The position numbers were made by a program, and so were the translations under genes. The notes under the pieces are model-generated. The model saw only the letters and a program-made list of their open reading frames with translations, did no database searches and had not been told where the DNA came from. A DNA stretch of 63,910 bases, filler included, from Collodictyon triciliatum (taxonomy: Eukaryota): NCBI GenBank assembly GCA_043381765.1. It is 5 parts of 5 records of this genome, joined end to end, with 100 filler letters (N's around TTAATTAATTAA, not from the genome) between each part and the next. Parts side by side here need not be neighbours in the genome. Positions count along the whole stretch, not along the records: positions 1 to 17,315 come from JBHJMP010001465.1; 4 more parts are not named here. The stretch is one strand, 5' to 3'. This document shows positions 192 through 47,054 of this stretch, piece by piece. How positions within the stretch are numbered: the first letter of the stretch is position 1; every line of letters starts with the position of its first letter.

Positions 192-311
192 GCGCATTTT
201 CCCTCACATACCAACCAACAATAAAAAAAAAACACTAAGTTGGGCTCAAGGCTCATCCTTTCAGCTGGCTCACTTTTAAAAAAAAAATTGTTATTTTTTG
301 CTTTTGTACAG

Positions 312-2793
312 TGTGGCTTAGGCGCCTCCTTCGTCCTGACATCTACCTTCATGGACAAGCGCTCTTTTGATTACCTTCCTATTTTCTCCTCAATTTTCGG
401 CTTAGCAGCTAGCTTCAGCCTCATCGCACTTTTACCTTTGGATGTCTACGGTGTCTCTGGCTCATATGAAGCTGGAGAGGGCCTTTATCTGGCGTATTAT
501 CGTATGTCCCTGAGTGGTCATTATCAATCTTTCTAGAACCTCAGTTCGTTTTTTTTATTTTTATTTGTCTCCTTCGTTTCTTTTTTCCTATTTTCGGCAC
601 ACTCACAATACATTTTAAAGCGGCTTTCAGGACCGCCTTTCCACCGAAACTCATATCCTCTTTATTAACCCCACCCGTTTAAAAAAACTAAGACTTTTGA
701 ATAATCATTTTCGAAGGGAAAAAACATTATTTGCTTCGTAGATTATTTTTCAAAATGATAATATATTGAAGTGATCCAGTCTCTTTAAGTTTGTGTCGCA
801 CAGAGGGACGAGAATCACATATCACCCTTCATTTTTTTCAATCTAGTTCTTCTATTTTTGGCTGGATTCTTTGCAGTGGGCTTCATACCATTCTCTTACT
901 TTTATCAAGAAGAAGATGCTGAAGGTGCTACGTGGAAATGCAAGACAAAAACAGCCATAAAGAAATCGGCTATATTTTGGATTATATTTACACTATCATT
1001 CGCCCTTGGAACCCTCATTGAACCGCACACGAAAAAGTATCAGGAAGACCCCGAAATGATTTGGATTGATGAGCTTTTCAGAGACTATAACTGTAATACC
1101 TCAACAATCATTTGAATGACCCTGTTTTAGTGAATCCGTGAACTTTCTATATGTTTTCTATCCTTTCATACACAATTTTTTAAAATAATCGAAATTATGC
1201 AGCCCTCGAGCGATCTTTAACGTTGGCTCTTGGTCTTTTCAGCACTGTTGGATTCATTCCATTGATTGTCTATTTGGTAGGATTTTGAGAAGAAAGTTAT
1301 GATATGTATCTTCTATTATAGCTTTGTATTCAATAAAAGTATATAAAAAATGGATCTAATGAATGTAGGGGTATGGTTTAGTGGCTCTTCCATTAAAATT
1401 TCTCAGAGGAAAACAGAGTCACAAACAAGAGGTTGAGAATGTCAGCATTGAACTAGATGAAATTAGGTCGAGAAAGGAAGAACTGGAAGCTAGATACCCT
1501 TCAGAAAGCAAAATGCCCAGGAAAGAAAGAAGAGAATATGATGATCTGAAATCTCGCGAATCGTGAGTATTCATTCAAGCATATGCTTCTTGCAATAGTA
1601 ATCCTTTGTTTCATCAAGTACACATTTCAAATTATTTTTGTATCATGCATTCTCCAAGACCTTAGAAGCCAGTAACCCTCCTTTTATTTATCTACTTTCT
1701 TTTCGTGTATTTTACGATCTTTTAGTAATTTTCTCTGATTATTGTCTGCCTTTCCTTACTTTAATACAGGGCTTTGACTAATCGGTCAGAAAAGCTCGGA
1801 ACTTTTTCCGTAAGATGCCGGGCTCGTTGCTTTGCTGTCGCATCCCCATTCTTCTTTGCTATTGGACTGTTTTTTGCTGTAGTATCTCTGCTATTTTTTG
1901 TGTCTATTCTCACGACTACATTTGACCGTCTCGCAAACTCCACATGTGGAATCGAGTGTGGATTTTTGGTTGATAAACCTCAATTCAATCCAATTGACCA
2001 GCTTCTGGTATCAACCTCAGAAGCTTTCCCTTCTGACTACACTTTCCTGAGTGGGCTGATTTTGTACCTATTCTCATGCACTGTGTATGGAGTCTTGCAA
2101 ATTGGTCTCCGAAATTATAGATTGAAGGTAAGCATCATATTTCGCTAAGTTATGATACTATTTTTATTATTACTATTATCATTTAACCCCAGCAGACAAT
2201 CATATACCCAAATTTTGATCTTTGCGTTGTGTCAAATGTAACATGAACATTCCTATACATGTAGAAAATCAATATTTTATGGAGAAAGACGCCTGCCACA
2301 TCACTCCTTGCAACAATCATCGTATTGATTTTATCCACTCTCTCCATCTTTATTACTGTCTTCTCTATCGCGCCCCAGTACAGCACATTCGGCTCTGGGC
2401 AATACTTTTCTGAAGAAGTTTGTTTTATTTGCAATTTTCTATGTATCTTTTTCCTTAAGTTTCATATGACACATGCATCACGAGAATTTTTGCTTTTTCC
2501 TAACTTTTTCTTTTCTTTGTTTTTTTTTTTCCATTTTTCCATTTTTCCATTTTTCCCAGGATGAGACGAAACAAGATGCTTGCCATCTCACTGCTTTGTC
2601 ATCGTGCGAAATTACTCAATACGCAACTATTCACCACCGAGTTATTATCGATATTTCTTTGTTCTGCATGCTCTACCTAATCTTTAATGTCTTCCTCTCC
2701 ATTTCCTTTTTCGTAAGTGGGGTATCTATCATGCGAGCAAAACCTCAATCAAATATCCCAGAGCCCGACGAAGCCGAGGAGCGTCTTGTTTAG
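312..2793 (+). CDS. LMBR1-family membrane protein (LMBRD1-like lysosomal cobalamin exporter partner); spliced, 5' end probably upstream of window
   Basis: GT-AG exons ~312-501, 848-1092, 1203-1276, 1369-1562, 1770-2127, 2264-2418, 2560-2793. Motifs LIALLPLDVY, FIPFSYFYQEE, GYGLVALPLKFLRG plus coiled coil, CGIECGF, NPIDQLL, FPSDY, APQYSTFGS. Confidence 0.85.
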
Positions 2794-3313
2794 CACGAAT
2801 TTTTTTTTTAAAAAAAAAAAAAAAACAGAAAACTGGTTCACAGCCAACAAATAAACTCATATCAACTGCCTACAACGAATGTCGTACCCAACACAACCCC
2901 ATCACCACCCCCCGTTTCGTTATGCGACTAAAGTAATGACCAATCAGTTTGCTTTTCTTCGGCACACACCCTAATCCAATTGTGTTGCAAAACAAGAACA
3001 CAGAGAGGTAGGATAGCACCGATAATACTTTTTTCTATATCTGAATATGTGTTTGTTGTGAACGGAATGCCACCACCGCAACATCGCCGGTAATGCGGGC
3101 ATATGCCGAACGACAACCGGCGCTATCTATCCCGCACTAATTCAAAGCCGCAGAATGTATATGCGCTACGAGGTCGTAAAAAATAGTACAGCGAGTTCCT
3201 GCCCGACTTAATGGTCATCCTCGCACTCGAAAAGCACGATGTAAAGCACAGAGGCCACCAAGGCGGAGACACACCAGTTACTAAAAAGTGAGCACCCTGC
3301 CCTTCCACTGGGC

Positions 3314-3431
3314 AAAAAGGGGTGGAGATCGCCAGGAGCTATGTCTTCGGTTGGGATCGAACCAACGAGAATTTATTCAAGAAATTTTGTGAACCAATCA
3401 CGCGAAGTAACTCCACGGCTGTGGCCGCCCC
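3314..3431 (-). ncRNA. Vault-RNA-like Pol III small RNA with internal tRNA-like module
   Basis: TATAAATA 30 nt upstream; 5' GGGGCGG pairs with 3' CCACCCC followed by TTTTT; inner stems GCC/GGC, GGAGUUA/UAGCUCC, CUUCG/CGAAG; B-box GGTTCGATCC; GTTACTTCG motif as in animal vault RNAs. Confidence 0.7.
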
Positions 3432-3453
3432 GCGATGATCGCTGAAACAAGCC

Positions 3454-3461
3454 TATTTATA
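3454..3461 (-). promoter_or_regulatory. TATA box (TATAAATA) at -30 of the putative Pol III RNA
   Basis: Forward tatttata at 3454-3461; its first T on the minus strand is 30 nt upstream of the predicted 5' G at 3431. Confidence 0.6.
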
Positions 3462-4134
3462 CTACATTTCCGCTATTTTCGTTCTATTTTCGTTCTCTTT
3501 CGTTCTCTTTCGTTCTTTTTCGTCATTTCCCTTGTGGTATTCCGACTGCAAGAGCTTAGATACAATATGGGGCTAGACGTGTGGTGAGGAACGCACTAGT
3601 ACGATAGGGTTTTCATTATAATTCGTATACGCGTAAGGTTAAGTTATGGTAAACGGACGCAAACATAGTAGTATATTCCTGGAAAAAGATATGGCCATTC
3701 ATCTGCTCCTGACGGACCAAAGCGCCCCTTTGTATAACATTTAAAAAAAAAATCACCTTTCTTTTTTCATTCCCGTCCCAAGTGTTTATGTCTGTGGTTC
3801 TCATAGTCTTTTTTTTTTTGTGGCAAAGTTTCCCTTTCATTATATTATAGCATGACCTTGAACTCATGTAACAAGAATCTATGACCGAGGTTGTCTTTTG
3901 ATTCCACTGTATTTATTCAGTTGGGTTCATTGCCATGAGAATCGAAAGCTTGCTGTTTGTACTGAGTGCATAATAAAATGAAGCAGCGAGCATAATTGCC
4001 ATTATCATTTACCACCCAATTATAACATTCGTTGTTGTTGTTTTTACTCGGATTTTCTTGTGGACAAAACATATCACTGCCACTTTGCCGAGGCAAGGCC
4101 TGACGCTCCAAAGCAGTTTTGAAGTAAAGGCTCA

Positions 4135-6431
4135 CGCAAAACACACTTTTCGTACTCATCATAATCTATTCGCCCATTCCGGTCAAAGTCCATTTTTCCT
4201 GAGATGTAGTCTAGCGTCATTTTCACATCATCACCTTTGAACTATGGTGGTAGGAATAAATAAAAATGGTTTAGTGGTGAGTATAAAAGTAGTGGAAAGC
4301 GATAATCTTTGAATGGAGATAAAAGCCTTACACTCTCAAGGACGTTTCTTTCGAGGAGAACCAAGGCTTCTTTACGAGAGATATATCCATCACCGTTGGC
4401 ATCATACTTTTTGAATTGATCTAAAAAAAGAAAAGAAATCCAATCACATATTACTTTTAGGGTGAGAAAAATGCTTTTGGATTTCTGGTGCTCTTTACCC
4501 TTGAATATGCAACATTAATATTGTGCTTGAGACCTAGAACCATATTCTGATTTCTATAAATACCTCGAATAACTTTTTTCAGCTCATCAACATCTTTGAT
4601 CTCTCTTCTGCTGACATCGGCTTTTGGAGGTGGTGATTGGGCTCTTTCTTTTATTTGCTCTTTTGCTAAAATTTTGGTTAGGGTTGATTCGGATGTAAAG
4701 GCATATCAAGGACAAAAGCATAGGGAAGTTGAAATGATATCATCAAATTTTTGAATACCATCTCCTGAGCGCATTCCATGGTAATCAAACTTGGCATAGT
4801 ATTTTGTCTTGGCTAATCAATAGAGCTTTGATCAGAAAATACTCATCAATTAAGACTGAAAGAGGCGCATACAAAATCCCTGTGGATGATTCTAATTCCA
4901 ACAACCCACATTTATATTTCTGAATGCTCTGTGGTCTGGGGACACTATCGTTATCTTCCAGCCCGTCTTCATTTGAGCCATCGGTATCTGCAATCTTGGA
5001 CATATCTGAACAGGCTGAATAGGTCAAGTATTTATTTTACTTAAACTTGGTCAGGGTAAATGTTAGAGGAGTCGCGATTAAATTTAGATATTCCCTTGTT
5101 TATCATTTAGCTTAAAAAAAAGTAACATTACCAGCTTGATATTCAGCATTCGTGCTGAGGTGTCGTAGTAACTACAAGACATTGATAACAATTAAACATG
5201 GAATTATGTAGTGGTATATTCTCTAAGTGAAATAGCATCATGTGTACACAGTTTTACATGAGCAAGACCTGAGTGACTGGCTTCATATATGACTTTATAG
5301 TCGGTGGCTCGGGCGGTGGTGGCTGTCGATCCAACCTCGTTGGTGAAAGAAATTCAAATAATTTGGTTCCCTGATCGATCTAAATCAAAAGTATTATTTA
5401 AATAAATAAACATCAACTAGAATCGGTTGCAATATCAAAACCTCATACTGTAATCATTTTACAAATACTGTTCAGTATGCATATGCGAATCTATTCTTTG
5501 CACTATATAATAAATATCAGAATATTACCGAAGGCCACTTCATGACTTCCTTCGAATATGGCTTTTCTGCAAGTGGAAAGTTTCGTCTTATTGCACTAGG
5601 CTCTTTGGCAATTGCAGTATTTTGTGATGCGTTGTGATGTGCTTTTAAAGGAGGGGATGTGGCGCGCTGTTGTAGACCAAGCGTTGGAGCTGATTTTGAG
5701 TTAGGGTGGATTGTTATCCGCTGCATATTTTCAGTAGATATGTTGATATTCGATTCCTGCCTTCGGGTTGCCTTTGGTAAAGATGGAAGAGGAGCCAGAC
5801 GAGTGCTATGTATTCTTTCCTTATGAATTTCTCCAGTTTTAGGCTTCAAAGGTGCCAACTCTTTGCCTGGAACTGTCGAAGGCACTGTCGCTTGCAATTC
5901 TTTCGACTTTGATGCCGAACTGGTAGGATTTGGAAATAGTTCGGCTGGACTTGCCTGAGGTAGTGTAAGTGTATGGCTTAACGTGAATAAAAACGTGAAG
6001 TGGTGTTCATGAAAATTCCATTTATTATGTCACAACAATCGTACAATTCATATGTATGATTTCTTTTGGCTATTCACATGATGGTTTAGATGTATCGTAA
6101 TAAATATTATTTCTTTTTCCTGTTTTTTCTTTTTTTTTCTTTTTTTCTTCTTCATCACTATCCCCTTCACTATTACAATCTTGAAACCCTCGGCATGGAA
6201 GCTCACCCCTTGTGGGAGAGACGACCGGATGGAGACCTCGTTCCCAGGAAGCGGTGTTATGATGTAGAAGGACATTTCCCAGTCGGGTTCAAGTACAGCA
6301 GACTTCTTCTCTGGTGCATTAGGGGCTATCGGGAGTGCTGGTATCTGCGGCTGCATCTGTGCTCCTCTTGCCAACTCTCTATGGCTCCCTGCTGTTTGCG
6401 GACTTTGCTTGAAGGAGCTAAACTTGAGCAT
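4135..6431 (-). CDS. Protein with C-terminal EF-hand pair and long low-complexity Pro/Ser-rich N-terminus; spliced, termini uncertain
   Basis: Exons ~4332-4420 (DQFKKYDANGDGYISRKEAL) and ~4135-4241 (MDFDRNGRIDYDEYEKCV) are canonical EF loops; upstream ORFs 4785-5027, 5517-5897, 6048-6431 on the same strand. Confidence 0.65.
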
Positions 6432-12384: not shown

Positions 12385-14992
12385 ATGGGAAGTGTTCGCG
12401 CCGTCCTTCAAGTCTTTGAGCAATATCAAAAGTCTCGCGTCACTTTTGTGCAGACAGTGGCGGAACTGGCCACCAGACCACAAAACATCGAGGCCCTTCA
12501 GAACGCCGGAGTCATGTCTCTGCTCCGTCCCTTGCTCCTGGACAACGTTCCGTCCATCCAACAGAGTGCAGCCCTCGCTTTGGGCCGCCTCGCCAATTAC
12601 AACGAAGACCTTGCAGAGGCTGTAGTGTCTGGCGAGATTCTCCCGCAACTCGTCTATTCCTTATCGGAGCAAAATGTAGGATATTTATTACTTTGCCCCC
12701 TGGTGGATAGTAGCGTTTATTTTATCCCAAACAATTTTTTTTGTTGCACTTGATATCATTCTCTCCTATAGCTCTATGACGATATAAGGTACAATTATTA
12801 TAGCGTGGGGATGTTGTTAAGGGTCGCCAACAAAGAAAAATAATTTCACTATCTGTAGAGATTCTACAAAAAGGCTGCAGCATTTGTCCTGCGAGCTGTG
12901 GCCAAACACTCTCCACACTTGGCTCGGGCAGTGGTTGAGTCAGGTGCACTTGATGCCCTTGTCACATGCCTCGAGGAATTCGATCCTGGAGTGAAGGAGG
13001 CTGCTGCTTGGGCCCTGGGATACATAGCTCGGCACAACGGAGGTTAGTATCATTTACGTTCAGCACTCAGAGGCAGTCCATCATGCCACAGAAGAATGAA
13101 CCGATAAATTCGACCTCCATCTCTCTACACAGGAGTCATTTTCCGTGAGTCTTTTGTTTGTTTGTTCGATCAATGATAAATCATGGACATTTTATAGAGC
13201 TCGCTCAGGCGGTGGTAGATGCCGGGGCCGTTCCGCTCCTTGTTCTCTGTGTCCAAGAGCCAGAGCTTTCTCTCAAGCGTATTGCTGCCTCTTCCTTGAG
13301 TGATATATGCAAACACTCTCCCGAGGTATATGCCTTCTATATCTTCTTTTACCTCATTCGTGACACATTTTGATTTATTCATTCTAATGATTGCTTCTGC
13401 TCTCTATTAACATAAACCACAATATAGCTGGCTCAAGCAGTCGTAGATGCTGGTGCTATTGCATATCTCGCTCCTCTGATTCAAAATGTGGATGGAAAAC
13501 TCAAGCGCCAAGTTTGCTCCGCTTTAGCGCAGATAGCCAAACACTCTGTTGACTTGGCAGAGTTAGTCGTTGAGGGAGAGATTTTCCCCAAGGTGAGAAA
13601 TTATCTACACACCTCTTGACATTTCAAGGCAGGGTAACTAATAGAATCTATGACTATGAGCAGCCAGTTTTTATACATACAGATACATATATACTGTTTC
13701 ACCGTTAATATTAAGCAATCAAACCACAATTCTGCCCGATAAGGTACTCACTTGCCTCAAGGATGTCGATCTCTTTGTGCGAAAGAATGCTGCTACTCTT
13801 ATACGCGAAATAGCAAAACACACACCAGAGGTGAAAGCTGATTCTCAAAAAGAAAAGAAACGTATTTATTTATTCATTTATTTATGCATTTATTTATTAA
13901 ATTCTCGAATTTATTGTATAATGTTACGACCACTGCAGCTGGCTCAACTGATTGTAAATGCGGGAGGAGCTGCTGCTATGGTTGATTATGTGAACGAATC
14001 TAAAGGAAATGGGCGCTTGCCAGGAATTATGACTTTGGGGTATATTTCAGCCTTCTCAGAAACCCTTGCCTTGGCGGTAATCGTGTCCAAGGGAATTGCA
14101 CCTTTGGTAAATGCATTAACAACTGAATCTGAGGACCATATCAAGGCCGCATCGGCCTGGTCTCTTGGTCAAATTGGTCGCCACTCTCCTGACCATGCAA
14201 AAGCAATCGCAGATGCAAATGTGTTGCCAAAGTTGCTAAGGTATTCAATTCTGTATTATTTATCCCCTAATTGTACTTTTCATGGTTTCCATTTACCCCA
14301 TCATACTACTTGTAATGACTCTTAGTTATTTGGTTTTATTCTGCTTATCTTATTTGGTGTTTATTGTTTTGTATTATTTGCCTTATTCTTCAATATATAC
14401 AAATGGTTGCCTTCGTTTTCACTATTTTTTTCCACCAGTGTTTGCTGGACTTTAGTGAAATAAGTCAATAAGCAAATTAGTAATTACCACTTGATGACAT
14501 TATACTCACAAACACAGTGTTTATTTGAGCGAACAAAGCTCGCAAGACCTCAAGACAAAGAGCAAACGAGCCCTCAAATGTATCATCGAAAAGTGTGTAC
14601 ATCTACAGGCATTGGAGCCGCTCTTGCACGAAGCGCCCACAAACATTCTCAAGTACATCGTCCACCAGTTCGCCAAGGTTTTACCAAACGACGTGGCACA
14701 GAGGAGACTCTTTGTGAGGTTGGCCCCAAGAAATAGCACGTCCCCTACCATCACATCACCATACATGCATCCCTAAAAGTGTAATGGACACGATAGCGTG
14801 AACTTTTATCTGACTTGCCCTTACCCCATCAGCAATGGTGGACTGCAGAGGCTCCAGGAAATCGAGGCGGAGCCTGGTTCCGCACTGCGGGAATACATCG
14901 ACACCATCAACGCCTGCTATCCAGAGGAAATCGTGCGCTACTACTCACCCGGGTATGCGTCCCAGCTGCTGGACAAAATCACGGAGTACTGA
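12385..14992 (+). CDS. SPAG6: Sperm-associated antigen 6 / PF16, axonemal central-apparatus armadillo-repeat protein; spliced
   Basis: VLQVFEQYQKSRVTFVQTVAELATRPQNIEALQNAGVMSLLRPLLLDNVPSIQQSAALALGRLANY ... INACYPEEIVRYYSPGY; about 8 exons. Confidence 0.97.
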
Positions 14993-19995: not shown

Positions 19996-22900
19996 ATGAT
20001 CCAGAACCGATCCTCCAAACGGACTGCAGCGTCAGCGCTCTACTTTCTGATCATACGTGTGCTCTATTCGTGTGAGTGGACTTTGTTTTGCGCTGGTTTA
20101 TCACAACCTTATCTCTTTCTACTTGAACTGCACCTTTAATTGTCTTCAAGATTGAATCTCAGATGACACAGGACAACATTTATTCATAATACAATTATCA
20201 TAAAGCAACATATCATCCCTTAAAAAGAAAAAAAATACAAATTAGACATATTATGCCTGGAAGTTCAACTAGAACGGTCAGAACCGTGGAGGTTATTAAC
20301 AGATTACCCCCCTGGATTTACCACGCAGAATAGTGTGGTTGTAAATGAGACTGTGCTATTCTTCCCTGAAAGGTATCTTTCATTTTATGAAGCAATATAG
20401 ACCGCGTTATCAAATGGAAAACTTTGACAACAGTTTTCAAATATAATAAATCGATCATTGAGTAGGTCATCAGAATAATTATGCATTTCTTTTTCTTTTT
20501 CTTTTATACATTTGAACACTTTTATATGGGAATACTTTTGCAGTTTTGTGATTGATTGGGGCTCAGAACCGAGATTCATGGACCATTTCTATAGGCTGGA
20601 TAATATTTGTATGTAAATTTATACCTGACAAGGTTTCTTTGCGACTGCTTTACTTTTTTTGTGGCATCTCATTATCTGTAATTCAGTTATCCTTTTCCGA
20701 TGAATACAACCAATCAGTATATTTAAACGAATCAAAAACGTTATATCTAGCTTCTTTTAATTGGACACTTCATTGGACTCGCGGAGCCTCGCCGCTGACC
20801 AGAAATGATTACTGTATAGTATCCTTTCTCAACCAGGTTTTTTTTTTTTTGCATAGGAATCAATTACTAATCCCCAGCCTATAAAATGGTTGGTTGTTCC
20901 TGGGATGTACAATTTTTTTTATGCATGACTGTGTTTTAAAAATTAATGTTTTATTTACCTTTTTTTTTTCACATCGCTAGAACCAGGTAACACTATTTGG
21001 AGGGCTGACCGACAGCTTCATGAATGATTTAAATACGCTTGACCTACACAGTATGACCTGGACTCGACATAGTTCAATGAAAACTTCTCCAAGAGGGCGG
21101 AGATACCCGTATTGCTTTTCACATAGCAATAATACCATGATTGTGTATGGGGGTGTTGGTCCTTCATCTACCTTTCAAGACCTCTGGATTTTTGACTTTG
21201 GTAAACATAACTATTCATTCATTTCCGTCACACTTCAAAATCGAAATATCCAAATCCAAATAAAAAAGCACGTCGTGGTTTGTATAATTTATCATTTTCA
21301 CCAACAGATACATCATATTGGAGACAAATAAAAACAAGCAACTTAGGACCCAGAAGTTATGCAGGTGTCTCCGCACTATATAAGCATAGAATATACATAA
21401 TTGGGGGAGATTTGATAGAGACTGTGTCATACAACTCCATCGATATCCTTGATATAGGTAAGATTTTTTTAATCACTCGCCTTATTTTGGTGATAAGATG
21501 GAATTCTATAATTCAAAATTAACCTTTACTTCGCAGACTCTTTAACATGGACGAAAACTGAATTTCAATCAAGCTTTGACCCTATACCATCTTCATTGCA
21601 TCGAGCCTCAAGTACACTTATAAGCCACGTACTCTACGTCTTTTTCGGGTTGTCAGGACCGAGTGAGACAACTCCCCGCTCGAGCATATTTGAGATTAAT
21701 CTCGGTATGGAAAATAAAAAATATTAGTGCTCATAATTACAAATAACTTTTTTTATATTCCAAGAAAATTTATGATGGTTAATAAATTAGATACTTTAAA
21801 AGTCGAGTATTCCGATGCATATTCAAACCCGATATCGTTTCCCTGTCCCTTTGACTGTTCATTTCCCTTACCTCGGTATGGAGCCAGTGCGTCTTCGGTT
21901 GGCAACAAAATTATTATACATGGTGGCATGAACAGAGATGTTTTATATGCCACATGGATTTATGACTCAGGTGCCACATGATATGAGTCAATCACGATAT
22001 ACCAAAGGATAAAATTAATTGATATACCCTATTCTTTTTATGATATAAATATTTACGTGAATATTATATTTCAGCCAGTTGATTTTTTTTTGTATTTAAC
22101 ATGTAAGAATCGAGAGCTTGGAATGCCAACTCGAACGATTTTTACCCAGCCAATCGGTTCGAAACCACCATATCCAAGTATAGTGCCACTTCTGTCATCG
22201 TATTTGGTGGAAAGTATATGTCTAACGACAGAGCCATATATCTTAATGACTTGTGGGTATTCGACTTGAATGATGGTAAGTCTACTGACTTTGATGACAA
22301 AGGATACAGACAATTTGTCTGAATTCTTCTGTGAATGTATTGAAGACTATAATCCAAGGACACAAGAATGTGATTTATATTAAAGTACAGCTGGCGATGG
22401 ATAATTTCACCCAAATATAAAGGGAAAAAATGGACGCGTCTATCACAGCCAAGGCCCTATAATAGCTCCACTACTAAGATGCACCCTCCGGGTCTTATTT
22501 TCTGTGTCTGTATTGCAAATTGAATCAATAATCAAAATCAATCACAAGAGTATCATTATTCGCCCCAATATTTTGAGTAAAATTTTGAATATCTGTTGAA
22601 ATTCACAGTCTCTGGGTGCTCTTGATGGAACGGTTTACATTATTGGAGGGAAAAGCGACTCTGAAATTACACCTGCGTATGGGTATACTTTTGATATCGG
22701 TAAGTGGTTTTTTTTCCCAGCTATCTTATTGCTTTATTATTGTCTGGAATGCAAACATAGGCAAAATTTTCTTTATTCTCGTACATTAATTATTTAAATT
22801 GTATGAAGGGGGTCTGAAATGGAGTGTCTTTGAAACAGACGGATTCAATAATGGGATATTCTCGAGTTTTGGACAGGCATTCTTGAGTGTTGGCTCAAAG

Positions 22901-25900
22901 ATGATTTTGTGGGGCGGTGTTGATATCTCTGATGGTATTGCATACGAAAGAAACCAAATCACCATCGTCTCGCTTGTGGACAAAACAGTACAAGTCATCA
23001 AGTCACAAAGCAGTCCAAAGTCACGCTTTTTGGCCACAAGTTTTCTTCAGTCGGACGATACATTCTGNNNNNNNNNNNNNNNNNNNNNNNNNNNNNNNNN
23101 NNNNNNNNNNNNNNNNNNNNNNNNNNNNNNNNNNNNNNNNNNNNNNNNNNNNNNNNNNNNNNNNNNNNNNNNNNNNNNNNNNNNNNNNNNNNNNNNNNNN
23201 NNNNNNNNNNNNNNNNNNNNNNNNNNNNNNNNNNNNNNNNNNNNNNNNNNNNNNNNNNNNNNNNNNNNNNNNNNNNNNNNNNNNNNNNNNNNNNNNNNNN
23301 NNNNNNNNNNNNNNNNNNNNNNNNNNNNNNNNNNNNNNNNNNNNNNNNNNNNNNNNNNNNNNNNNNNNNNNNNNNNNNNNNNNNNNNNNNNNNNNNNNNN
23401 NNNNNNNNNNNNNNNNNNNNNNNNNNNNNNNNNNNNNNNNNNNNNNNNNNNNNNNNNNNNNNNNNNNNNNNNNNNNNNNNNNNNNNNNNNNNNNNNNNNN
23501 NNNNNNNNNNNNNNNNNNNNNNNNNNNNNNNNNNNNNNNNNNNNNNNNNNNNNNNNNNNNNNNNNNNNNNNNNNNNNNNNNNNNNNNNNNNNNNNNNNNN
23601 NNNNNNNNNNNNNNNNNNNNNNNNNNNNNNNNNNNNNNNNNNNNNNAAAAAAAAAAAGATAATTGAAAGAGTTATTAATTCGCCGGCCTCTCCTCTCTAG
23701 AGTCTGAGTCATGGGAGACAACAAACAATACTTTGGAGGAACCTGCACCTTTCCAACAATATGTCAGCGTCAGGATCGACCGCTTCATCGTCGTATTCTT
23801 CACCATATCTGATTTGGCACGAGACAATAGAGTATTTGGATATGAAATTGGTGAAAATTTTTAGCCCCTATTTTCATAAAATCTACAGTAAAATATCTTT
23901 CCTTCTTATTGTGTTTTAATTCCCTTTCCGTCTTTTTTTTTTTTTAATAAAAATTTATGCTATTCTCAGTGACATTTCGTATAGGGGCGACTTTTTGTTC
24001 TGGAATAGTGCGTATCGACAGCGGTGGCGCTTCTATGACGATAACTGACGGCAGTGGACCTTCACATTACATGCCTTTTTCTAACTGTACATGGATAGTA
24101 AAGGGACTCGACACAATTCAAGTTTGTATATAAATCGACGAGATTGTATTGATTCTGCTACGTGATGCTTGATTTATTTTGACCATTTAAGTCCGGCAAA
24201 TTCATAAACACAGGAATTTGAAACATTAATATCGGTTCTAAATTAGACTTTGCAAGATTTACTTTCAAATTGAAAAGACGATTCCTTTTAGGTCAAAGAA
24301 ATGTCTATGGAAAAGGATGCATCATTGGAATTAAACATAATTACAGAGTGCAATGATGGAAGTATATCTATTGGTGATTCAATTTCCAAGAAAAAAGTAC
24401 TACTCGCTTCCTTTCTCTAATGATGCATTCATATTCGAATTAAAATATCAGCTTCCCTCTGTGGTAATTATAGATATTATATTTATTTATTTTTACCTGT
24501 CTCATTCGTAACCTGTATGACCTAAACTATTAGATTGACATATCCAAACTATCGATCGGAACTATAATTAAATTATCGCATCACGAATTTGAGCTGTCGT
24601 TTAAATCAACAGGCTCAGAGAATACAATGAGTGGATTCAAACTAAATGCCTTAGGTTTGTTTCATAAATTGTCCCTCTGCATAAAAATAAAAAAAATGGC
24701 TAAATAATATAAACCTTCTGCAGACTGTCCAGTTGGATTTTACGTGAGGGATCTAGAGTGCGTGTGCCCGATGAATCACTACATCACACCTGGAGGGGAT
24801 TGCCGGTCTTGTGATGAAAATGCATATCAGGACAAGGAAAATATGGTTTTTTTTAAAAAAAAAATTTTTTTATTAATAATATGAGTCGAAGCCAAGACAT
24901 ATTATATAATACCTTTTTTTTAAAAAAAAAATGTACGCCCTCTTTGAAATCATATAGAAATCGTGCATTCTGAAAGGAAACCTAATCACACAAACGACAT
25001 CGCGCATCGGTTACTTTCTATACACCTACGCAATTTAAGTAAACTGTGCGACATCCTTTCTATCCTCACCTCATATGATGCCTTTGTTTTTGTTTTTTTA
25101 TTCAGTTAACGCGAATGGAGGCTCATTCTTATACTTGAATGAAACATTGCCGTCGTGCGATAACAGTGTTGCGGCCTCTTTCCAGGACCAAGCTTTTTTT
25201 GGGTGCATGTTTTCAGGCAGATTTTCGCACGAAAGCAAACTTATTCCAGTCGAGATTATTACCGTGGAAAGAATATGTATGTCTTTATTCAGTCCAATTA
25301 CTGTAAGCCAGTAATTGCTTTTTTATTAAATTTAATAATAATTTTTGTAAATTCAAATACGGTAGCGCTTTTTCTTTTTTGATTTGGAATCACATAGCAT
25401 GATTTGTTTCCACTCCTTTTATTTAAAAAACTATCTGTATTTTAAATTGCGTTTGACCATAAAAATAAAATAGTTCCGTTTCAATGGTCTTACGTAAATG
25501 CTATTGGAGATATTCCAAAAAGTCGCAAATGGCCATGTTTTGTATCTGCCTTGGACGGAATATTCCTGATAGGTGGAGAAGCAGTTATTTCTCAAGAAAG
25601 GGATGTTTATATATTCCAGCCCACTTTTAAAATCTGGAAGAAACTTGGAATGGCACCATTTAAACTTGTTGGGTGCGCCTGCATATCTACCGGGGGATTC
25701 ATTTATGTGCATGGCGGAGAAACTGTATGTTTTTGTAAAAGACTATCAAGTTTACGCTGAATCGTTTTCTATAATGTTGACACTAATTTCGGAGTATCGT
25801 AGGATTATGGAAAAGTCGTGAACACGATGTATGTGTACAATGCAGGTATTTGATTTCATTTTGATCGTTTTATAGTTTATCAAATTGAACAAGTACGATA

Positions 25901-28900
25901 TTGTATATCAAGCATCTAAATGTATACTCCAATTATGCCACTTCTCTAGAGAAAGATGTATGGAAATTAGAAATGTGGAGGAATTCTCCCTTCCTCGCTT
26001 ATCATGCCATGTGGCTGAGAGTTGATAAACAGTTTTCTGTTTTTGCTGGATTTGATGAGATTCAGGAAACAAATCTGGACTACATAGGGAACCACAGTAA
26101 GTCATGAGCAACAAGTAATGGATGTCATATAATCGTGACCTATTTTATTCAGACTAGAACCATTTATTTCGCTGGACAAAAAAATATTGTCTTGAATAAA
26201 AATTTCGTAAATGAATTATGCTTTTTTGCATAACAGCCTCAAAGGTTTGGACTCAAGGAAGTCGGTTGGATTTTAGAGATTGCTCAAGTTGCCCAACAAA
26301 TCAAAGCTTTTCGTGTATAATTCCTCGCCAAAAAGCTGCCTTTGCACAAAATATTGACCGTATATTTATTTATGGGGGCTGTCAACATACGTCTGTCTTT
26401 CGGGACTTGCTCCATGTCAAGCCACGTATGATTTTGTGAGATTACAAGCAACGTATCAAAGAATACAAAGTATGTATTTTTAAATCACTTTTTGTAATTC
26501 TAATTGTGACGTTCGCTCCAATAAACGAATGTCCAGCAATGGATTCATTTGTAGATATAATTGAGTTTGGAGATACGGTTGACGGTTCGAATATTCTTCC
26601 TCCTCCTTCTTTCGGTTCAAGCGCAGCAATAAGCAACGGAATTCTTCACGTTTTTGGAGGTTACGGAAGCTCTTTGGGTTGGCCTATGAATTTCATGTGG
26701 TCTTATGACACAAGTAATCCAAAATATATCATCATATATCAAGCTGCACAAAATAGCTCAAGTGCAAGAGCGCGATTCAAAATAAAAAAAAAATATTTTT
26801 CTTATCTCCTCATAGATCTGGGTTCTTATATCGGGTCAAGCCAAGACTCCACTCCGCTGCCTAGAAGAGATTTTGCATCCACGAAAGTCTTAGAATTTGG
26901 CTTTTCGATTTTTGGGGGCATGGTTTCATCCTTTAAAGACTTTATTTCAAACGATGCTTGGATTTTCAATAGAAGTGAGTAATTACGGTATTATTTTGAA
27001 AAAAACCAATTAATCAAAATCAGGAGAGCATAAACGATGTAATTTTTTTTCCTTTTTACTTTGGTTTCTTGGTATCTTGGTATCTTGGTATCTTGGTATC
27101 TTATTCACCCAGAGAAAAAAATTTCAAAAAAAAAAAAAAAAGAACTTTCCAAATGGGTTCAACTTTCAGAGCATCGAGTTAACCCAAGTCATCCATCTCC
27201 GCGACTTGGTTGCGGCATGACATCATACAAAGATCAGCTGTTCATTTTTGGGGGAGGGAGCTTACTCGAGGAGGGAAATATCATGTGGAAAATGAACATA
27301 TCCTCAGTCCTATCCAGTCCTTACTTTGAAGGTTCTAATCATTCAGTGTGATTTTTCAACCATATAATTAGCATAATAACTCTTTCGGTTGGCTAGGCAC
27401 ATTGACTTGGAAAAAAGTTTTTGTATCGCGAGCGACGGAGTCAAGCTACAGTATTTTGTTACGTTCAGATTTTTCTTACGTCAGACTCGGTTCATGTGTA
27501 TGGATGTGGGCTGGTGATGTAAGTTTGCATTTAAAACTTCACTGAAACTAAACAGAAAGTGTTTCCGTACAAAAAATGAAGATTTTTTTATTCTAAAAAT
27601 CGTCGAATTGTGAGAGTCTGTAATTCTTTTTTAATTGAATGGACACACAGCTGAACCTTGAAATAGAACAAGCTGAGGATTACCGAGCAACATACGAACT
27701 GTGTCTTGATAATATGATTATCAATAAATATGTCTCTGTTTACGAGAATCCAGTAAGTATTCTGTTTTCTTTGAGATTTTGTACAAGACCGTACTTATCT
27801 TATTAGAGGGTTGGCACAGTTTTATTTTTTTATAAAACAAAAAATTCCCAGGTACCACGAAAGTATCACAGAGCCGTGCAAGTAGAATCTTCTTTTTGTA
27901 TCTTTGGAGGTGAAGATTTCCGAAAAAGACCTCTGAATGATGTTTGGTGTTTCAATTCAAGTTAGTGTTTATTATATTTTACCCCTTTTTTCATATTATA
28001 TAATTCAGATGATTTATACTCTGATCATAAATATATATTTAATTGTAGAATTAAAGTCAACCTATCTGCCTCCACTTATTCTTGAGTTGTCATTTTGAAT
28101 AGAATCGCTTAACTGGACAAAGGTGGACCATTCGAATTCTCCTGGCCCATACTTGAGTAAATATGCGGTAACTTCTTATGGAAACAATTTTATGATTCAT
28201 GGTGGTATTGATGAGAAAGGGAAATATAGCAGAGATGCGTGGATATTTCGTCAAAGTATGCTTCATCTCTTTCGAATTGATTTCATGTAATTGTTTAAAA
28301 CTTTAGTGTATAAATAAGCAAGGTTGATTCCATTGTTTATTCTGACAAATCCGACAAAATGTGTTGAAGGGGGAAGTTCGTGGGTGAAACTAGAGATGAA
28401 GATGCAAGAAAATCATTTCCAGTATGTATATGGCCACTCTGCAGTAGCATTTGATGAACAAGTCTTGATATTTGGAGGAATGACGAATAATTTTCCAAGC
28501 AATTATTTGACCTCTTACAAACCTGGTGGGAGAGTGAATAAATATGTGAAAATACCATAAAATTATTTCTCTAGAAAATATAGATGATTGATTTCCCATT
28601 CACTATGGGTCTTATAATTTATTCGGGTTTTCAGTCCCCATAAAGTCATTCTTATCTTTTGAATGTTTTGCTACAAAAAATTGAACTAGGTATATGTGGT
28701 GAAAGCACAGTGAACATCGTACAGAGTTCAAGAACGATGCAGCTACATGAAATAAGGAGCATGCACGGACTTTTCCCCAAAGGAGAAAAATGCATTTGGC
28801 ATTTTATAGGTGTATCTCACATGTTCTTGAATATTTCCATAAACTCCCAGGAAAGGTATACGTCCATCTTATAAAAAATAAATCAGCATACTCTATCATG

Positions 28901-31900
28901 ATAGAAGAATCCCTGATAAACGCAACCTATTCTGCACATAGAATTAAAAATCCCTTCTTTGTGCAGAATACATGCGTATGAGATACTTTTCAACAAAACA
29001 AATACGCTACTGTATACTTCCAACGAGTCTCAGATGAATGTATCAGTAATATCCACACAACGCTCGATCTATTTTGAGTATACATCTCTGAGTGACAACA
29101 GAAACCCTACGATGCACCAAAATGGCATCCTCATAAGCTACATAGGTGACTAACTTTCGTTACTACGCACAGGCTCTCGATCTCTCTAATATATCAGAGA
29201 AAAATAGTAGAATGTCCTTTTAGAAGAAAAGACTAAATACTGCTGTCGGTTATATTTTAAGGGTGTGGAGAAAATTCGTACCTGGACAAACAAAGAGTGT
29301 GTCAATGTCCTTCAGGATACTATGATGATATGCTGCTCAATAAATGTCTACGGTGCTCATCCCAATCTCGCCATGTAAGAATTATAATTTGTTTTTCATA
29401 ATTTGTTTTTTCCTGCAATTTCGATTATCTATCCACATAATTTAGAATCTCACTAAATACTCGTCGCTGTATTTCTCTTTGTATCATCACATACATAAGC
29501 CTGGCTGCAAATCATCCGACCGTATGAGATTTATTTCTTTGATAAGAAGCATAAATGTGCATCTTTACGTATATCCAACCTTAAAGTATTAGCGTGTAAT
29601 TTTATGATATTTGTTATATTTTCACCTACTTTAGAGAAGAAAGAAATGACTTTGAGCATGGCAATCATGACGGGAGGTCTCCTTGTCGTGTTCCTCCTTT
29701 CTATTGCTTTTATGACGATTCGGAGATATCGAAATCGGATATATGTTCTTCAAGAGCAAGAAAACAAATGGCTTGCAAAGCTAAAGTATAACGAACTTGA
29801 ATTTCAAAACCTAGTGGGTATTGGCGTTTTCGGAGAGGTTGGTGGATTTTTTTTTCTTGTTCTTTTCCTTTTGTTTCGTTAATTTCCTTTTATTTTCATT
29901 GTTGGTTGTTCGAAATGACGAGACCATAGATGATTTTTCTTTAAAAAATAGGTTTACATCGGTCGTTGGCGAGAGACCGTTGTTGCCATAAAAAAAATCC
30001 ATTATCACAGGTTTACAAAGACCTCGATAGATACCTTCCAAAACGAAGTCTCTGCAATTGTGTATGACTTTAAAACTTCAATATGTAGTGGGGACTAATA
30101 ATTGCGGCAATACCATTTTAACCCAAGAGTTGAAAAATGGTGTATTTTTTCCTTGGCTTTTGGTAGAATCTCCTAACCATCTAAAAATATATGACGATGT
30201 GACTTTAGAAAGCTTAGACACCCAAACATTCTACTCTATATGGGCGTTGTAATTGAGCATCCTAACATCTGCATAGTTGGAGAGTATATGGCGCGCGGGA
30301 GTCTTTTCAGAGTATGCTCTATACCTCGGTTTTATTTAATGCTCTTCTTTAAAAAAAATTCACTTTTATAAATAAGTTTCAACTTATCATTCCGAACTGA
30401 ACTCAAGCTAATTAAAAATGACAAGTGTTGACAGTTCTCAAGAGGAAGAATACTTTAACTTATACATTTTCCTCAGGTTATACACAACAACGACATTAAT
30501 CTAGACCATGTCACCAAGATAGGATTTTTAATAGACGCAGCAAAAGGTTGCATTAATACTTTACAATTACCCTTCGTCATCTCAATGATTTCATTCGTGT
30601 GATAGAAAAAAAAAAACATCTCTTCATTTCAAACTTTAAATCAGGTATCCAATTCCTGCACATGTCGAAGCCACCCATTCTGCACAAAAATCTGAAAAGC
30701 TCGAATTTGCTTGTAAGTATATTGATTACATACCATCTTTCCCTGAACATCGTGCTTTAGATTCTTCAGCGTCGTGAAATAGTATTAATAGTATCTTTTT
30801 AGCTCGACGATAAGTGGAACTTAAAAATAAGGTACTAATAAATCATTTATTTCAAAAATCCTCCTAATTTATTTCTTTTTTTTAAAAAAAAGAAGGTTAA
30901 CATGATAAACCTCATTCGAAGCTCCTTCAGTGTTCTGGTAAAATATATACCTCTATAAAAAATTTCCATTCAGCGACTTTGGAATCACTCGGTGCTCTGG
31001 AAGCAGCGGAGCAGAAATCTGTGGGACGTCGCTTTGGGCTGCACCAGAAGTCGTCTCACGGCAAGATTACACCGCGGCTTCTGACACATATAGCTTTTCA
31101 ATCATCATGTGGGAAACTTTTGTTCGAAAAATCCCTTTTGAGGTTATTGGTGATATCATGACGAAGAAATCATGCCTGTGTGACTTACATTGAGTTTTTG
31201 TCTGTTTATTTTTCATCAAAGATGAAAATGCTTTTTTAAATAAATAAATGAAGATTTCCTTGCTTTCTTTTAATAGGGTGAAATAATGGAATCGGTTGTT
31301 CTTCGTGTTGTGGAGGATGAATATCGACCGTCTCTTCCATCCATCGATGAGATGCATGAAGTCCTTCAAAGGCTCATGATACGGTGTTGGGACCAAGATG
31401 CATCGGCCCGACCGAAATTCCGAGACATATTAAAATCGCTGCAAGCTTCACGGCAACTCTACGCTGTTGGAGAAGGCATGTCTTCGCACGAAGAAAGAAA
31501 GAGCCGCGTGGTTGCAGTCGGGCTACCTTTGAAGCGAAAAACTGTTCTGGTCATCACAGGCGTTCGTGGCTCAGCAAGTTTATGGGAACTGTGCCCTATC
31601 GAAGCTGGCGATTCTTTATTCATTCACAATGAAATCGTTCGCACCAAGGTGGCTGAATATGGGGTATTTTTGATAACTATGACAAGGCAGACTTAGTCAT
31701 ATGCATGATTATGTATTCATTTCTTAGACTGTAGGCCACTTAAAAATGGGTAACAAGTGCATTAAATGTATCATAAATATCCAAGGGCAAGATTGTTCGT
31801 GCAGAGGGTGATTCGTTTCTTCTTTCATTCGAGAGTATTACACAGGCTGTCGTATTTTGCTTTTCGGTACAGGAAGCACTCCTTTCTGTTGACTGGCCTC

Positions 31901-32943
31901 TGCCTATTCTGCAACAAACCCCTTGTAAGTTGGAACAGGTTCAAGGTGTTATCATTTTCAAAGGACTAAGAGTTCGAATGGTAATCTTTCTTTCGAAATG
32001 ATTTTTGGCAAATACGATAAATATGATGACAAAAAACCAAATTACATTTTAATGTAAAGAATAGAAGAAAAGCAATAATCCGATACTACTTAATCCGATG
32101 TCATGTGTTCTTTCGTTTGAATATTTTATTTTATTTTTATCAATTCAGGCAATACACGTGGGCGAGCCATTTACCAGGGAGGACCCAATTACCAAGAGAA
32201 TTGATTATTATGGACCTGCCTTGGAAATCACAGCAAACATATTTCAATTCACACAAGGCGGCCAAATTCTAATAAGCGAAGCTGCAAATATAGTTTGATT
32301 TTATAAACCATTCTGTTCCATCATTTTTATTCAAATAAAATTGGAGGTCGGGTGACCGTATATTGTGGGAACATTCGCATATTAAATCTCTTATGACGAT
32401 AAAAAATGGTGGGGGAAAAAATATCAATTCACAATTTCACCATATATATGTATATGCAAATTAGGACATTCAAAAGTGCCGTGAGGTGGATGCGCCGATG
32501 ATTGAGTCCAGAGACATCGGATATGTTACGACTAGAGAACAATCAACATCAGTACATCTGTTTGAGGCATGTCTTTCTGTCTTGCTCGATACATTTGTTG
32601 TGTATTATCCCTTCAGAAACTTATTTCTTGCACATATAGATACTGCCGCCGTCTCTGGCGTTAAGGCGCTTGTGTTATGAATCAAATTTGACGTCGAACT
32701 CCGCTGTGCTTAATTTTTGTACGTCTTGCGAGTCAGCAGCTGATCTTCAGCAACCAGAGGTTAGAAAGATAGCAGGAAGAAGTTTAAAATATAATTGCAA
32801 TATTTGTCATTGTGACGCTATTGAATTTGCAAGTGCAGTATATCAGCACAACTTTTTGTTTTGTTTTGTTTTGTTTTGTTTTGTTTTGTTTTGTTTTGTT
32901 TTGTTTTGTTTTGTTTTGTTTTGTTTTGTTTTGTTTTGTTTTG

Positions 32944-32974
<31 letters not shown>

Positions 32975-34560
32975 CAATTGAATTAATTTCATTCACCTTT
33001 TGCATTAAGATAGTTCAATTTTCTTTTTCATGTAACTTTTACAGGTTTTCCCATGGGAGATTGACTTTGGTTCTCTTTCTCTTACAAAGAGAGAGCTTGG
33101 CTCAGGTACATTCGGTGTTGTTTATTTTGGTGAGTACCAGGCACGGCCCGTTGCGATCAAAAAACTACTGAATCAAAACCCCCATGACAGACAATATTTT
33201 AACTTGCTTGCTGAAGTCAACATCATGAGGTATACTCCCACAAAATAAGATGACAGTCTTGAAATAAGTTATCACTCAGAGCTCGTTTTTTTTTTAAAAA
33301 GAAAAAACAGAAATAGAAGAATACCTTTTCCGCTATGATGTATCGGTGGAATTTAATACGTCTGACAAAATAACCCCCCAGGTCTATAACTCACCCACAC
33401 ATCCTCTCGTTTGTCGGTGCATGTCTCAAACCACCAAACATCAGTCTCGTTATGGAATATGCGCCAAGTGGAAGTCTACGTGATGTCCTCGATGACCGCC
33501 GGGTATAGAAAAAATAGTGACAATGCACATTCATATTTGGATTATATAATAGGGCGTTTAATGAATGAGAATTCAAATGAAGCCATATGCTCGGCATAGA
33601 TTTCACTAAGTGCACAATTAGATTTGGTCATCACTCGCTTCTTCTTTTTTTATCTTCATATTCCAAATAGCAATATATCGACAAAGAATTCCAATGGGGT
33701 GTACTGGAACAAGCTGCTAGTGCCATGCTTTATCTCCACACGCGAATACCAGCCATTTACCACAGAGACTTGAAAAGTGATAACATTCTGGTAATGCTTT
33801 TCAAAAGAAAAAATTGGCGTAGTCCAAAATTAGAGCGATTATATTATTTAAAAAAGAAAAAGCAATGATTTAACAGTTTCTGTCTCTCATTTGTCCCTAT
33901 CAAAGCGATACCACAGCATTCGAATAAGATTATCATCCAAACTTTTTTATGTACTTACTTTTTCAAATACCTGGAACGGAAACAGATATTCCAGCTTTCA
34001 CCTGTAATCGCAAAAATAGCTGATTTCGGCCTTGCTCGAGTCAAAAGTGACACGCAAACAATGACCAAGTGCGGAACAAGGGCTTGGCTTGCGCCGGAGG
34101 TAAATAATTTACAATTGATTTATAATCATCGTCCTTATTATAAATAAATAATAATAAGTAAATAAGTAGAAGGCTGTACAAAAAGAAAGAAAATATAGCA
34201 AAACAGCTATTCCATGCAACTGCAACTGCAACTGCGATATAGGTTCTGAAAGGCCTGTATTACGACGAGAAGGCAGATGTTTACAGCTTTGCCATCGTAA
34301 TGTGGGAGGTCCTGACTCGAGACCATCCTTACGACGGCGTGAATGGCGCAAAGCTGCATATGGACGTGGTTGCCGGTGCCCGTCCGTATCCTGTCCAAGG
34401 TGGCGACATGTTTCTTGTGGAGTTGATGCAGCGGTGTTGGGCGACAGAGCCGTGCAAAAGGCCTCGCTTCTTGGAGATACACGCATTTCTCCATAGCCGC
34501 CCTCCGCCCGACCAAAACGACGGTGAAGTCTCTGTGTGCGTTGTGAATCCCGGCGCATGA
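19996..34560 (+). CDS. Receptor-type protein: kelch repeats, CUB-like and Cys-rich ectodomain, single TM, TKL-like pseudokinase, class III cyclase-like domain, TKL kinase; many introns, internal gap 23068-23646
   Basis: Many IYGG/FGG...DLW kelch blades; CUB-like ITDGSGPSHYMPFSNCTWIV (~24040) and FPKGEKCIWHF (~28770); Cys-rich CVCPMNHY...CRSC and CQCPSGYY; TM ~29658-29720; two kinase domains around an LRVRMAIHVGEP...DYYGP cyclase core; start codon tentative. Confidence 0.85.
32854..32970. repeat. (TTTTG)n intronic microsatellite
   Basis: Tandem pentamer. Confidence 0.95.
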
Positions 34561-44000: not shown

Positions 44001-46588
44001 TGTCCACCCTACTGATATTCAATTTCCAAAACTGAATGATCAATCAAGATAAAATTCGAGCCACCTCAAAGAACTGAAGGAATGCTTAAGGATTTATGGG
44101 AACAGTATTCGTGTGCTCCAAGTCTTGACCATCCAGAAAGGTCCATGATACTATCAATGATAGCAAACTACATGTTCCGGCTACCGTAAGTTAAAAAAAA
44201 ATACTCAAATCTAATCCAACCCAAAGAATATCTCTAAATGTTTTCAGTGATTGAGTTTCATCTGCAAACATTTAATGCTTACTTTTGTTAAATGTAGAGG
44301 CTTTCTTTTATTCTTAAAAAAAAAACTGTTGTTTGAGGGAAACGTATTACTTCATAGAACTAACGAGCTCAGATCGGAGTATTCGAAACTGATCGCAAAG
44401 ATTCTCAAAGTTGAAGAAAATCATATTGATTTGGTCCTTAAGAGGGAACAGTATCTCTACGTCGAGCAGATGAATATCCCTGCGGACACTGCACGTAATT
44501 CAGCGTTGTTGGAAAATTTCTTTATGATGGTCACAGCTCTTTCCAACCGGATTCCGCTATTGGTAATCACACACAAAAAGATCAGAGAATGCAATTTTAA
44601 TTTTCTAGAAAAATTTATATCCCACTTGTATGGGTTCAATGTAAAATCGTGAATGTTATATTTGAGCTTTTTATGCACCGGAGATTAGAACATCCTAAAT
44701 ACTGATTGTCATCATAATACGTAGATTATTGGGAACCCAGGCTCTTCCAAATCCTACAGCTTGCATATCCTCAATAAAAACCTGACTCCAACCCAGAAAG
44801 TCAGTAATCCGAGACTGGAAAAGCTTAAATCATTCTCATGTGTCACTTACCAATGCTCCTCAGAATCCACATCAGAGGGTATATTTTTATTCGAGCTGCT
44901 TATCCAATCACATAAATTGTTATCATATCTTGTCATTTTAACACTTGAATGTATTCTGAGTATGAAAATCATTAAAAAGGAATCTTGACTGCTTATGAGA
45001 GAGCCAAAGTATACGACAGCGATACAAATGTTCCAGTCGTTGTTCTAGATGAAGTGAATATGCCTCCCTCTTAGCCATATTGATGTTTACTATGTGCTTA
45101 GAGATGAAATTTTGAATCAATATTCATCATCCATCTAAATATCGCAGATTGGACTTGCTGAGCAAAGTGAAAAAATGCCTCTGAAAGTTTTACACTGGCT
45201 CTTTGAAGACGAGAGGGTAGCTTTCCTTGGACTTTCCAACTGGAAATTAGATGAAGCCAAAACGAATCGCGCGGTAAATATTATCATAACTTGTAAAAAT
45301 ATGTATATGACTACCTTGGTATTCTGTCATATACTAATTAAAAATGAATTTTTTTGGTGGATGCTAGCTTTTCATTACACGACCGAGGATAACAGAGCAG
45401 GAACTGATTGACACAGCTAAAGGGATGCTAAACATAGGCCAGAATGATATCGTGGGTCTTGATTATTTTGTTTCTATTGTAACATGAAATTCAACCTTCT
45501 ACCTTAGCTCACCAAAAAAAAAAAAATAGTAATAATAATTCACTATTATGAACTTAATTAAGAGATCTGAATCCGTTTCAAGAATCGCATCTTGCTTCTT
45601 TAATATTTACAATCAACAATTATCTTGGTTCAATAAGCAGTATTATGGTGGGCTTTTTTTTTTGAGGAATTTTTAATGATGTGTCCGTTGCTAGTTGCCA
45701 ATTATTTCTTATGGTTTCATTATACAATTAAAATATTGACCTTTTTACAGGGCTTCGTGACTTTTACTTTGTAGTCAGGGGAATACACAGCGAGATTTCA
45801 TTCGAGCCTGAAAAACTCGGTTATATGATTTCTCGGAATTTGAATGGTCGCAAATACGAATACTTTCAAAAGGTTCTAAAAATATTTGAGGACGAATTCA
45901 ATCTTAATGTCCCAAGAAGCAGCTCAATTAACTTGGTAAATTAGTAATTGATGTATTATTTTTATTTTATTTTTTTACCTACGGGCGATTTCTTATTAGG
46001 GTACTTTATGCAGATTTTTAACTTTGAATTTCAAAAATTCAAATAGATTAAAGAGAGCATCAACGACTCAAACTCTCGCCATTTGATGATCGTATCTAAA
46101 GGAAACAAGCTATCGTTTGAAAGTCTTTTCGATATAGGGATAGTTTCGTATGATAAGTGTACTGTCTTTTACGCATCTGATTTCGCTGAAGATAAACAGG
46201 TGAATATCCAGCTCATTAAATTAAACCTCCATTTTCTTGGTTGTACTTTTATATGTATTGAGAAAAATATGAAACTATGAATTAATAGACACTAGGCAAC
46301 TAACAACTTTTTTATTATTATTTTGTGAGACATCTGTAAACAAATAGTATAATACTCAATAGGAATATGCAATATATCAAAGTGTCAGCAAACTTCGGGA
46401 TTGTATGGAAAGAGGTGAAAGAGTTGTTCTTGTCGACCAAAAGTCGATTTATGACAGCCTTTATGACTTGCTAAACCTGGTACAAACAAAATTAATCAAT
46501 TCGATATTATTTTCAATCATCCAAGCTGACTTGATGGGTTTCTAGAACTGCATGATAGGGCTTCTTTTATTTATGTTAAATTGTTGTT

Positions 46589-46634
<46 letters not shown>

Positions 46635-46999: not shown

Positions 47000-47054
<55 letters not shown>

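Follow-up and report, generated by a model that had tools for sequence, protein, structure and literature searches.

A probable vault RNA gene in the genome of a presumed protist

The stretch of DNA analyzed in this study, hereafter referred to as the window, is 63,910 nucleotides in length and eukaryotic in character, with a G+C content of about 38%, scaffold gaps, uninterrupted runs exceeding 15 kb and short GT-AG introns. In an intergenic gap of 1.3 kb between two convergent protein genes, we identified on the minus strand a short segment with the layout of a Pol III gene. The features of this locus and its two neighbors are as follows (positions count along the window).

225..2793, plus strand: gene for an LMBR1-like membrane protein (PF04791) with several exons, the last ORF ending at 2793
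3283..3287, minus strand: second T5 run, a terminator-like site 27 nt further downstream, past a small hairpin
3314..3318, minus strand: T5 run, predicted Pol III terminator, where the terminal UUUU of the Vault model is matched
3315..3431, minus strand: body of the putative vault RNA gene (match to RF00006), 117 nt including four terminal U, with the predicted start at G 3431
3319..3349, minus strand: 3' panhandle arm (RNA positions 83-113), ending in GGCGAUCUCCACCCC
3350..3366, minus strand: T-arm-like hairpin GUUGG/UUCGAUC/CCAAC (RNA positions 66-82), containing the B box
3363..3353, minus strand: B box GGTTCGATCCC, an exact match to GGTTCGANNCC
3403..3431, minus strand: 5' panhandle arm (RNA positions 1-29), with 18 identities to the Vault consensus in the cmscan alignment
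3421..3411, minus strand: degenerate A-box-like stretch (RNA positions 11-21)
3454..3461, minus strand: TATA-like upstream element TATAAATA, its first T at -30 from G 3431
3476..3523, no strand assigned: tandem repeat with a period of 10 and 4.7 copies, AGAACGAAAA in minus-strand orientation, located between about -45 and -92
4074..4514, minus strand: last two exons of an EF-hand protein gene, with the stop close to 4074, which on this strand places it about 640 nt upstream of where the RNA starts

The domain PF04791 was detected in three ORFs of the first gene, with E values from 2e-5 to 9e-5, each below the Pfam cut-off for a single exon. For the EF-hand gene, Pfam matches were obtained in the ORF at 4245..4514, and an EF-hand-like loop is visible in the ORF at 4074..4241. 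The G+C content of the RNA is 0.50, as against 0.374 in the surrounding 4 kb. After scanning of 119 ORFs of the window against Pfam, none was found to carry a TROVE, MVP or PARP domain.

Elsewhere in the window, several other genes and regions were recognized. The region 20981-34144 (plus strand) holds a long gene or gene pair in which numerous Kelch-repeat exons precede two protein-kinase domains, and a cyclase-like stretch was noticed by eye past the first kinase. A giant multi-exon gene at 35176-50899 (plus strand) includes single exons of 818, 1069 and 983 codons; these three large exons carry no Pfam domain. One exon of this gene falls near AAA-ATPase/RING E3 (RNF213-like) clusters in a protein atlas, and homology searches with the large RNF213-like exons gave no match. 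A G+C-rich patch at 52186-57010 (0.53 vs about 0.38), which adjoins a scaffold gap, contains a GHL10 glycosyl-hydrolase-like ORF at 53503-54828 on the minus strand (E 1.9e-22), flanked by two inverted HMG-box paralogues, one from 52186 on the plus strand and the other at 55346-57010 on the minus strand. Over about 95 N-terminal residues the two paralogues are nearly identical, the copy on the plus strand being G+C-rich. This patch may have arisen by gene transfer, duplication or misassembly.

The RNA body, running from 3431 to 3319 on the minus strand, extends for 113 nt before the first T, and is followed directly by TTTTT at 3318..3314. The octamer TATAAATA is common in this AT-rich window, in which 11 copies were found against 4.4 expected, and therefore only its position is informative; we infer for it a promoter role in transcription. 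Just upstream, the tandem repeat (92% matches and score 73 by Tandem Repeats Finder) could be either a promoter element or a plain microsatellite. Matches to GGTTCGANNCC in the window number 4, as against 0.22 expected. The three matches other than the B box of this locus, at 22156-22166, 56834-56844 and 62568-62578, are all located inside protein-coding ORFs, and no A box, panhandle or T run was found near any of the three. The A box agrees with TRGCNNAGTGG, as read by eye, at 5 of the 9 specified positions, and the Rfam consensus is matched at AGC..G..G. The second T5 run, judging from its place, may act as a back-up terminator. An earlier, sequence-only reading of this DNA had proposed a vault-RNA-like Pol III gene here, with a TATA-like element 30 nt from the start, a B box and an oligo-T terminator. 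Its coordinates and every element it listed were found in place on the minus strand, and the extent of about 115 nt that it gave agrees with the RNA of about 113-117 nt, starting at 3431, that we predict from these signals.

The predicted fold of the RNA is stable. The minimum free energy (MFE) structure calculated by RNAfold, at -38.4 kcal/mol, is identical with the centroid structure, while 200 dinucleotide shuffles gave -28.6 +/- 3.5 kcal/mol (z = -2.82), and only one of the 200 folds as well. In the panhandle, RNA positions 1-4, 6-7, 13-16 and 18-29 pair with positions 83-113, forming 22 pairs with probabilities of 0.875-1.0. The pairings GGGGcGG/CCaCCCC, GCC/GGC and GGAGUUA/UAGCUCC, from which the panhandle had originally been proposed, are all included in the MFE fold with probabilities of 0.955-1.0. 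In addition, RNAfold predicts a weaker small hairpin at RNA positions 31-43 and the T-arm-like hairpin with its 5-bp stem and 7-nt loop UUCGAUC (pair probabilities 0.64-0.66).

The conserved sequence GUUACUUCG in the 5' arm occupies RNA positions 21-29 (3411..3403). Compared with the Rfam model, the RNA carries a 15-nt insertion in the 3' arm, located after the B box in the cmscan alignment; in the RNAfold prediction, this insertion pairs with CUUCG and GUUA of the conserved element, by which the panhandle would be extended and the B box left free to form its own hairpin. Of the 19 pairs of the model, 3 are marked as non-standard (1 in the outer helix and 2 in the inner five-pair helix) and 16 are kept: the outer 6-pair helix keeps 5, and the two middle helices of 4+4 pairs keep 8 of 8. 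The inner helix of the model is poorly kept, with 2 of its 5 pairs non-standard, and CUUCG is paired by RNAfold with the inserted segment instead.

For assignment of the RNA to a family, the whole window was searched by cmscan against Rfam 15. The Vault model RF00006 was matched at 3431..3315 on the minus strand with 46.5 bits, well above the gathering score of 34, and the alignment covers model positions 1-99 of 99 without truncation. The E value of 3.3e-7 refers to 63,910 bases, the two strands and 4227 families. No family other than Vault was detected in the whole window at gathering thresholds; at E<=1, a single further row was obtained, an unrelated sub-threshold CRISPR-repeat match at 47.4 kb. 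When the 501-nt region 3150..3650 was searched with laxer filters and E<=10, Vault was again identified, with an E value of 2.6e-9, and no other family was matched, Y_RNA, YrlA, the tRNA clan and 7SL being all absent. Since Vault is the only family found in this region at E<=10, the Y_RNA, YrlA and tRNA models are excluded. The central claim of the sequence-only reading, that of a vault-RNA-like Pol III gene, is supported by this result.

Part of the RF00006 score stems from generic features of Pol III genes, namely the B box and the U tail. The identities to the Vault consensus extend beyond the promoter boxes into both arms of the panhandle, with GGG-GGC, AGC and GUUAC-UCG in the 5' arm and GCG-U-UCC-CCCUUUU in the 3' arm. 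The TATA element at -30, the G+C enrichment and the position in a convergent gap are not scored by the model, and each agrees with what is expected of a Pol III gene. The weakness of the A box would be in line with a likeness due to chance, or with a dead relic that is neither transcribed nor functional, but the E value is already corrected for the window and all the families searched, the fold is stable (z = -2.8), and the TATA box, the terminator, the G+C enrichment and the intergenic location each independently suit the needs of a gene; we consider this explanation very unlikely.

Another reading to be weighed is that the transcript is a Pol III RNA of tRNA descent, such as a lineage-specific small RNA or the master copy of a SINE, with no link to TEP1 or vaults, its likeness to vault RNA (vtRNA) arising only from a shared origin in tRNA-like A- and B-box modules with a closing terminal stem. 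In agreement with this, the T-arm-like hairpin that holds the B box is perfect, the 5' motif coincides with the A-box region, and GTTACTTCG is also found upstream of a T-arm in unrelated prokaryotic YrlA-like RNAs, indicating that this 9-mer recurs in tRNA-like contexts. Against it, neither the tRNA model nor tRNA-like models gave any match at the locus at E<=10, ARAGORN found 0 tRNAs in the window, and the Vault identities run through the 3' arm, for which a tRNA has no counterpart. With respect to a SINE, neither a second copy nor a fragment of the 117-nt RNA was found by blastn-short in the window of about 64 kb.

The contribution of the two most conserved motifs to the Vault score was examined with metagenome sequences carrying both. 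A pattern scan for GTTACTTCG-N20-50-GGTTCGANNCC gave at least 121 stretches, from which 40 loci were taken as controls for cmscan, comprising all 37 listed in which the two motifs are at least 26 nt apart and 3 others. None of these 40 control loci matched Vault at E<=10, and thus GTTACTTCG and GGTTCGANNCC alone do not explain the Vault score of the RNA; this result also speaks against tRNA descent, which we regard as unlikely on the whole. The control loci turned out to be tRNAs, one tmRNA and repeated sub-threshold YrlA-like matches. By inspection, a flank-duplex test and cmscan of the 40, no vault-like homologue was recognized among the at least 121 metagenome stretches listed, and viral contigs, scanned more strictly with three motifs, yielded a single match, which reads as coding sequence.

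The same scan revealed a recurrent RNA unit of prokaryotic appearance, which accounts for 97 of the 135 matches among the metagenome stretches listed (motif spacing 20-25 nt). Its order is GTTACTTCG, T-arm, acceptor-like hairpin and D-arm, as for instance at 298-425 of stretch L120 and 117-230 of stretch L061. The units, often in tandem, match YrlA by cmscan with 30-43 bits, short of the gathering score of 69, and may represent a divergent YrlA subfamily. They share the 9-mer GTTACTTCG with vault RNAs, and both classes of RNA are ligands of TROVE-domain proteins.

An RNA of the Y type, bound by a Ro60 homologue and not by TEP1, would have the same general architecture, that is, a Pol III transcript that is closed by a bulged stem at its ends and has a U tail, and a review describes the trypanosomatid vtRNA as thought to cover Y RNA-like roles. 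Neither Y_RNA nor YrlA was matched at E<=10, as against 46.5 bits for Vault, and this identity is highly improbable. We return to vault RNA as the preferred identity: the locus is likely, as judged from its sequence, to be a genuine vault RNA gene, a single-copy Pol III gene of a non-animal eukaryote, and it most likely adds a member to a known family, from a lineage for which no vault RNA has been documented.

As to the host lineage, a rough placement was made with a gene for a component of the flagellar central pair.

12385-14719, plus strand: SPAG6/PF16 central-pair gene with several short GT-AG introns

The presence of this gene implies a motile 9+2 flagellum, or a flagellate stage, in the host. 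The closest relatives of a SPAG6 exon are protist transcripts, with 94% identity to a transcriptome protein and 88% to an environmental one, and no identical protein was found in the collection searched, in which the genome thus appears to lack annotation. Organism names are given for 28 of the best 120 SPAG6 matches; we take these, from the names, to be 24 zoosporic fungi, 3 alveolates and 1 probable glaucophyte, and no animal, choanoflagellate or kinetoplastid is included among the 28. In a FastTree phylogeny of 120 proteins, the query-like SPAG6 sequence is placed outside a clade comprising every named fungus. A protein atlas gave weak leads as to the host, its commonest labels being Mollusca and Rotifera. 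The ordinary GT-AG introns of the window genes are unlike the usual structure of kinetoplastid genes. The designation of the host as a protist in the sequence-only reading appears reasonable from its non-animal SPAG6 matches and from this position outside the fungal (chytrid) clade.

The existence of vault RNA in protists is expected in principle, because wide occurrence among eukaryotes is described for the major vault protein (MVP), and TEP1 is described as following MVP; MVP itself has been traced to the last eukaryotic common ancestor (according to PMC3762200). The experimentally known vtRNAs, as summarized in PMC7058938, are those of vertebrates, a sea urchin and T. brucei, accompanied by more than 100 predictions in deuterostomes. 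In a 2009 paper on Trichoplax ncRNAs, vault RNAs were called 'largely unknown beyond deuterostomes', which was put down to their small size, weak constraints and fast evolution (PMC2655684), and a trypanosomatid vtRNA that associates with TEP1 and with the vault is described in PMC9326685 and PMC12547018. In the literature searched (subscription journals and Rfam species lists being outside its scope, so that an earlier database annotation is conceivable), no vtRNA was found described from organisms other than animals and trypanosomatids, in accord with the earlier remark that vault RNAs are poorly documented outside these two groups. The vault RNA of trypanosomatids has reportedly been documented since 2019. 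A text search with two stretches of the present RNA, in both DNA and RNA letters, retrieved no paper containing either.

The gene would be picked up by any annotation of this genome that makes use of Rfam. A protist vtRNA passing a model trained on animals would show that the family has a conserved core older than animals, and the gene would provide a second, independent non-animal anchor for better search models. Along this line we tentatively suggest, as a possibility that we hold with some reserve, that the sequence core of vtRNA, consisting of GUUACUUCG in the 5' arm, GCG-U-UCC-CCC in the 3' arm and the bulged panhandle, predates animals and was present in the common ancestor of animals and the host protist. 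If so, the age of vault RNA would be roughly that of MVP and TEP1, possibly reaching back to the last eukaryotic common ancestor. The present gene would then be the first protist vtRNA that can be recognized by plain homology, and could be used to start searches for vtRNAs in other protists, among which the literature consulted documents only the trypanosomatids. This suggestion gains in value if the organism is distant from animals and encodes MVP and TEP1, in which case a simple unicellular system would also be at hand for asking what vtRNA does with TEP1 and the vault; should the host have no MVP or TEP1, the RNA would point instead to an ancestral role independent of vaults.

The following model may be proposed for the expression and fate of the RNA. 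The TATA element at -30, the degenerate A box, the exact B box and the T5 terminator would together delimit a transcript of about 113-117 nt, for which TFIIIC and TFIIIB would recruit Pol III as in animals and trypanosomes. The two ends of the transcript are predicted to pair into a long bulged panhandle, with the B box presented as a T-arm-like hairpin in the apical part. By homology, the TROVE domain of a TEP1 homologue would then bind and stabilize the terminal bulged helix, and part of the RNA would be carried in vault particles formed of the major vault protein, the rest being free in the cell. The proposed TEP1 binding and vault carriage follow what has been described for rat, human and T. 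brucei. The function of the RNA is no clearer than that of the animal vtRNAs.

Among the known systems, Y RNAs and YrlA resemble the present RNA as small structured RNAs with a terminal stem, YrlA having in addition a tRNA-like T-arm module, and they are bound by TROVE-domain proteins (Ro60/Rsr), a class that includes TEP1. They differ in that their covariance models gave no match here at E<=10, and the YrlA-like loci of metagenomes have a D-arm-like module past the T-arm that is absent from this locus. The trypanosomatid vtRNA of T. brucei, TBsRNA-10, is described as having a bulged terminal helix, short similarities at the 5' and 3' ends, Pol III transcription and co-precipitation with TEP1; unlike the present gene, which is known from sequence and likened to TBsRNA-10 by description, it has experimental support. 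The closest likeness is to the animal vtRNAs of RF00006, including those of vertebrates and sea urchin, with which the RNA has in common that the covariance model is matched over its full length and above the curated threshold, that the 5' arm contains GUUAC-UCG and the 3' end GCG-U-UCC-CCC-UUUU, and that the ends form a bulged panhandle. A B box and an oligo-T terminator are likewise shared. Its length is inside the range of 84-141 nt stated in PMC8287541, and an upstream TATA-like element combined with internal boxes is also described for mammalian vtRNA genes in PMC7058938. In contrast to the animal genes, the host in this case is apparently not an animal, the A box is degenerate, there is no synteny of the protocadherin type, and the 15-nt insertion in the 3' half lengthens the panhandle, with the B box set in its own T-arm-like hairpin. 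The insertion and the extended panhandle represent a variation on the animal design and not a departure from it.
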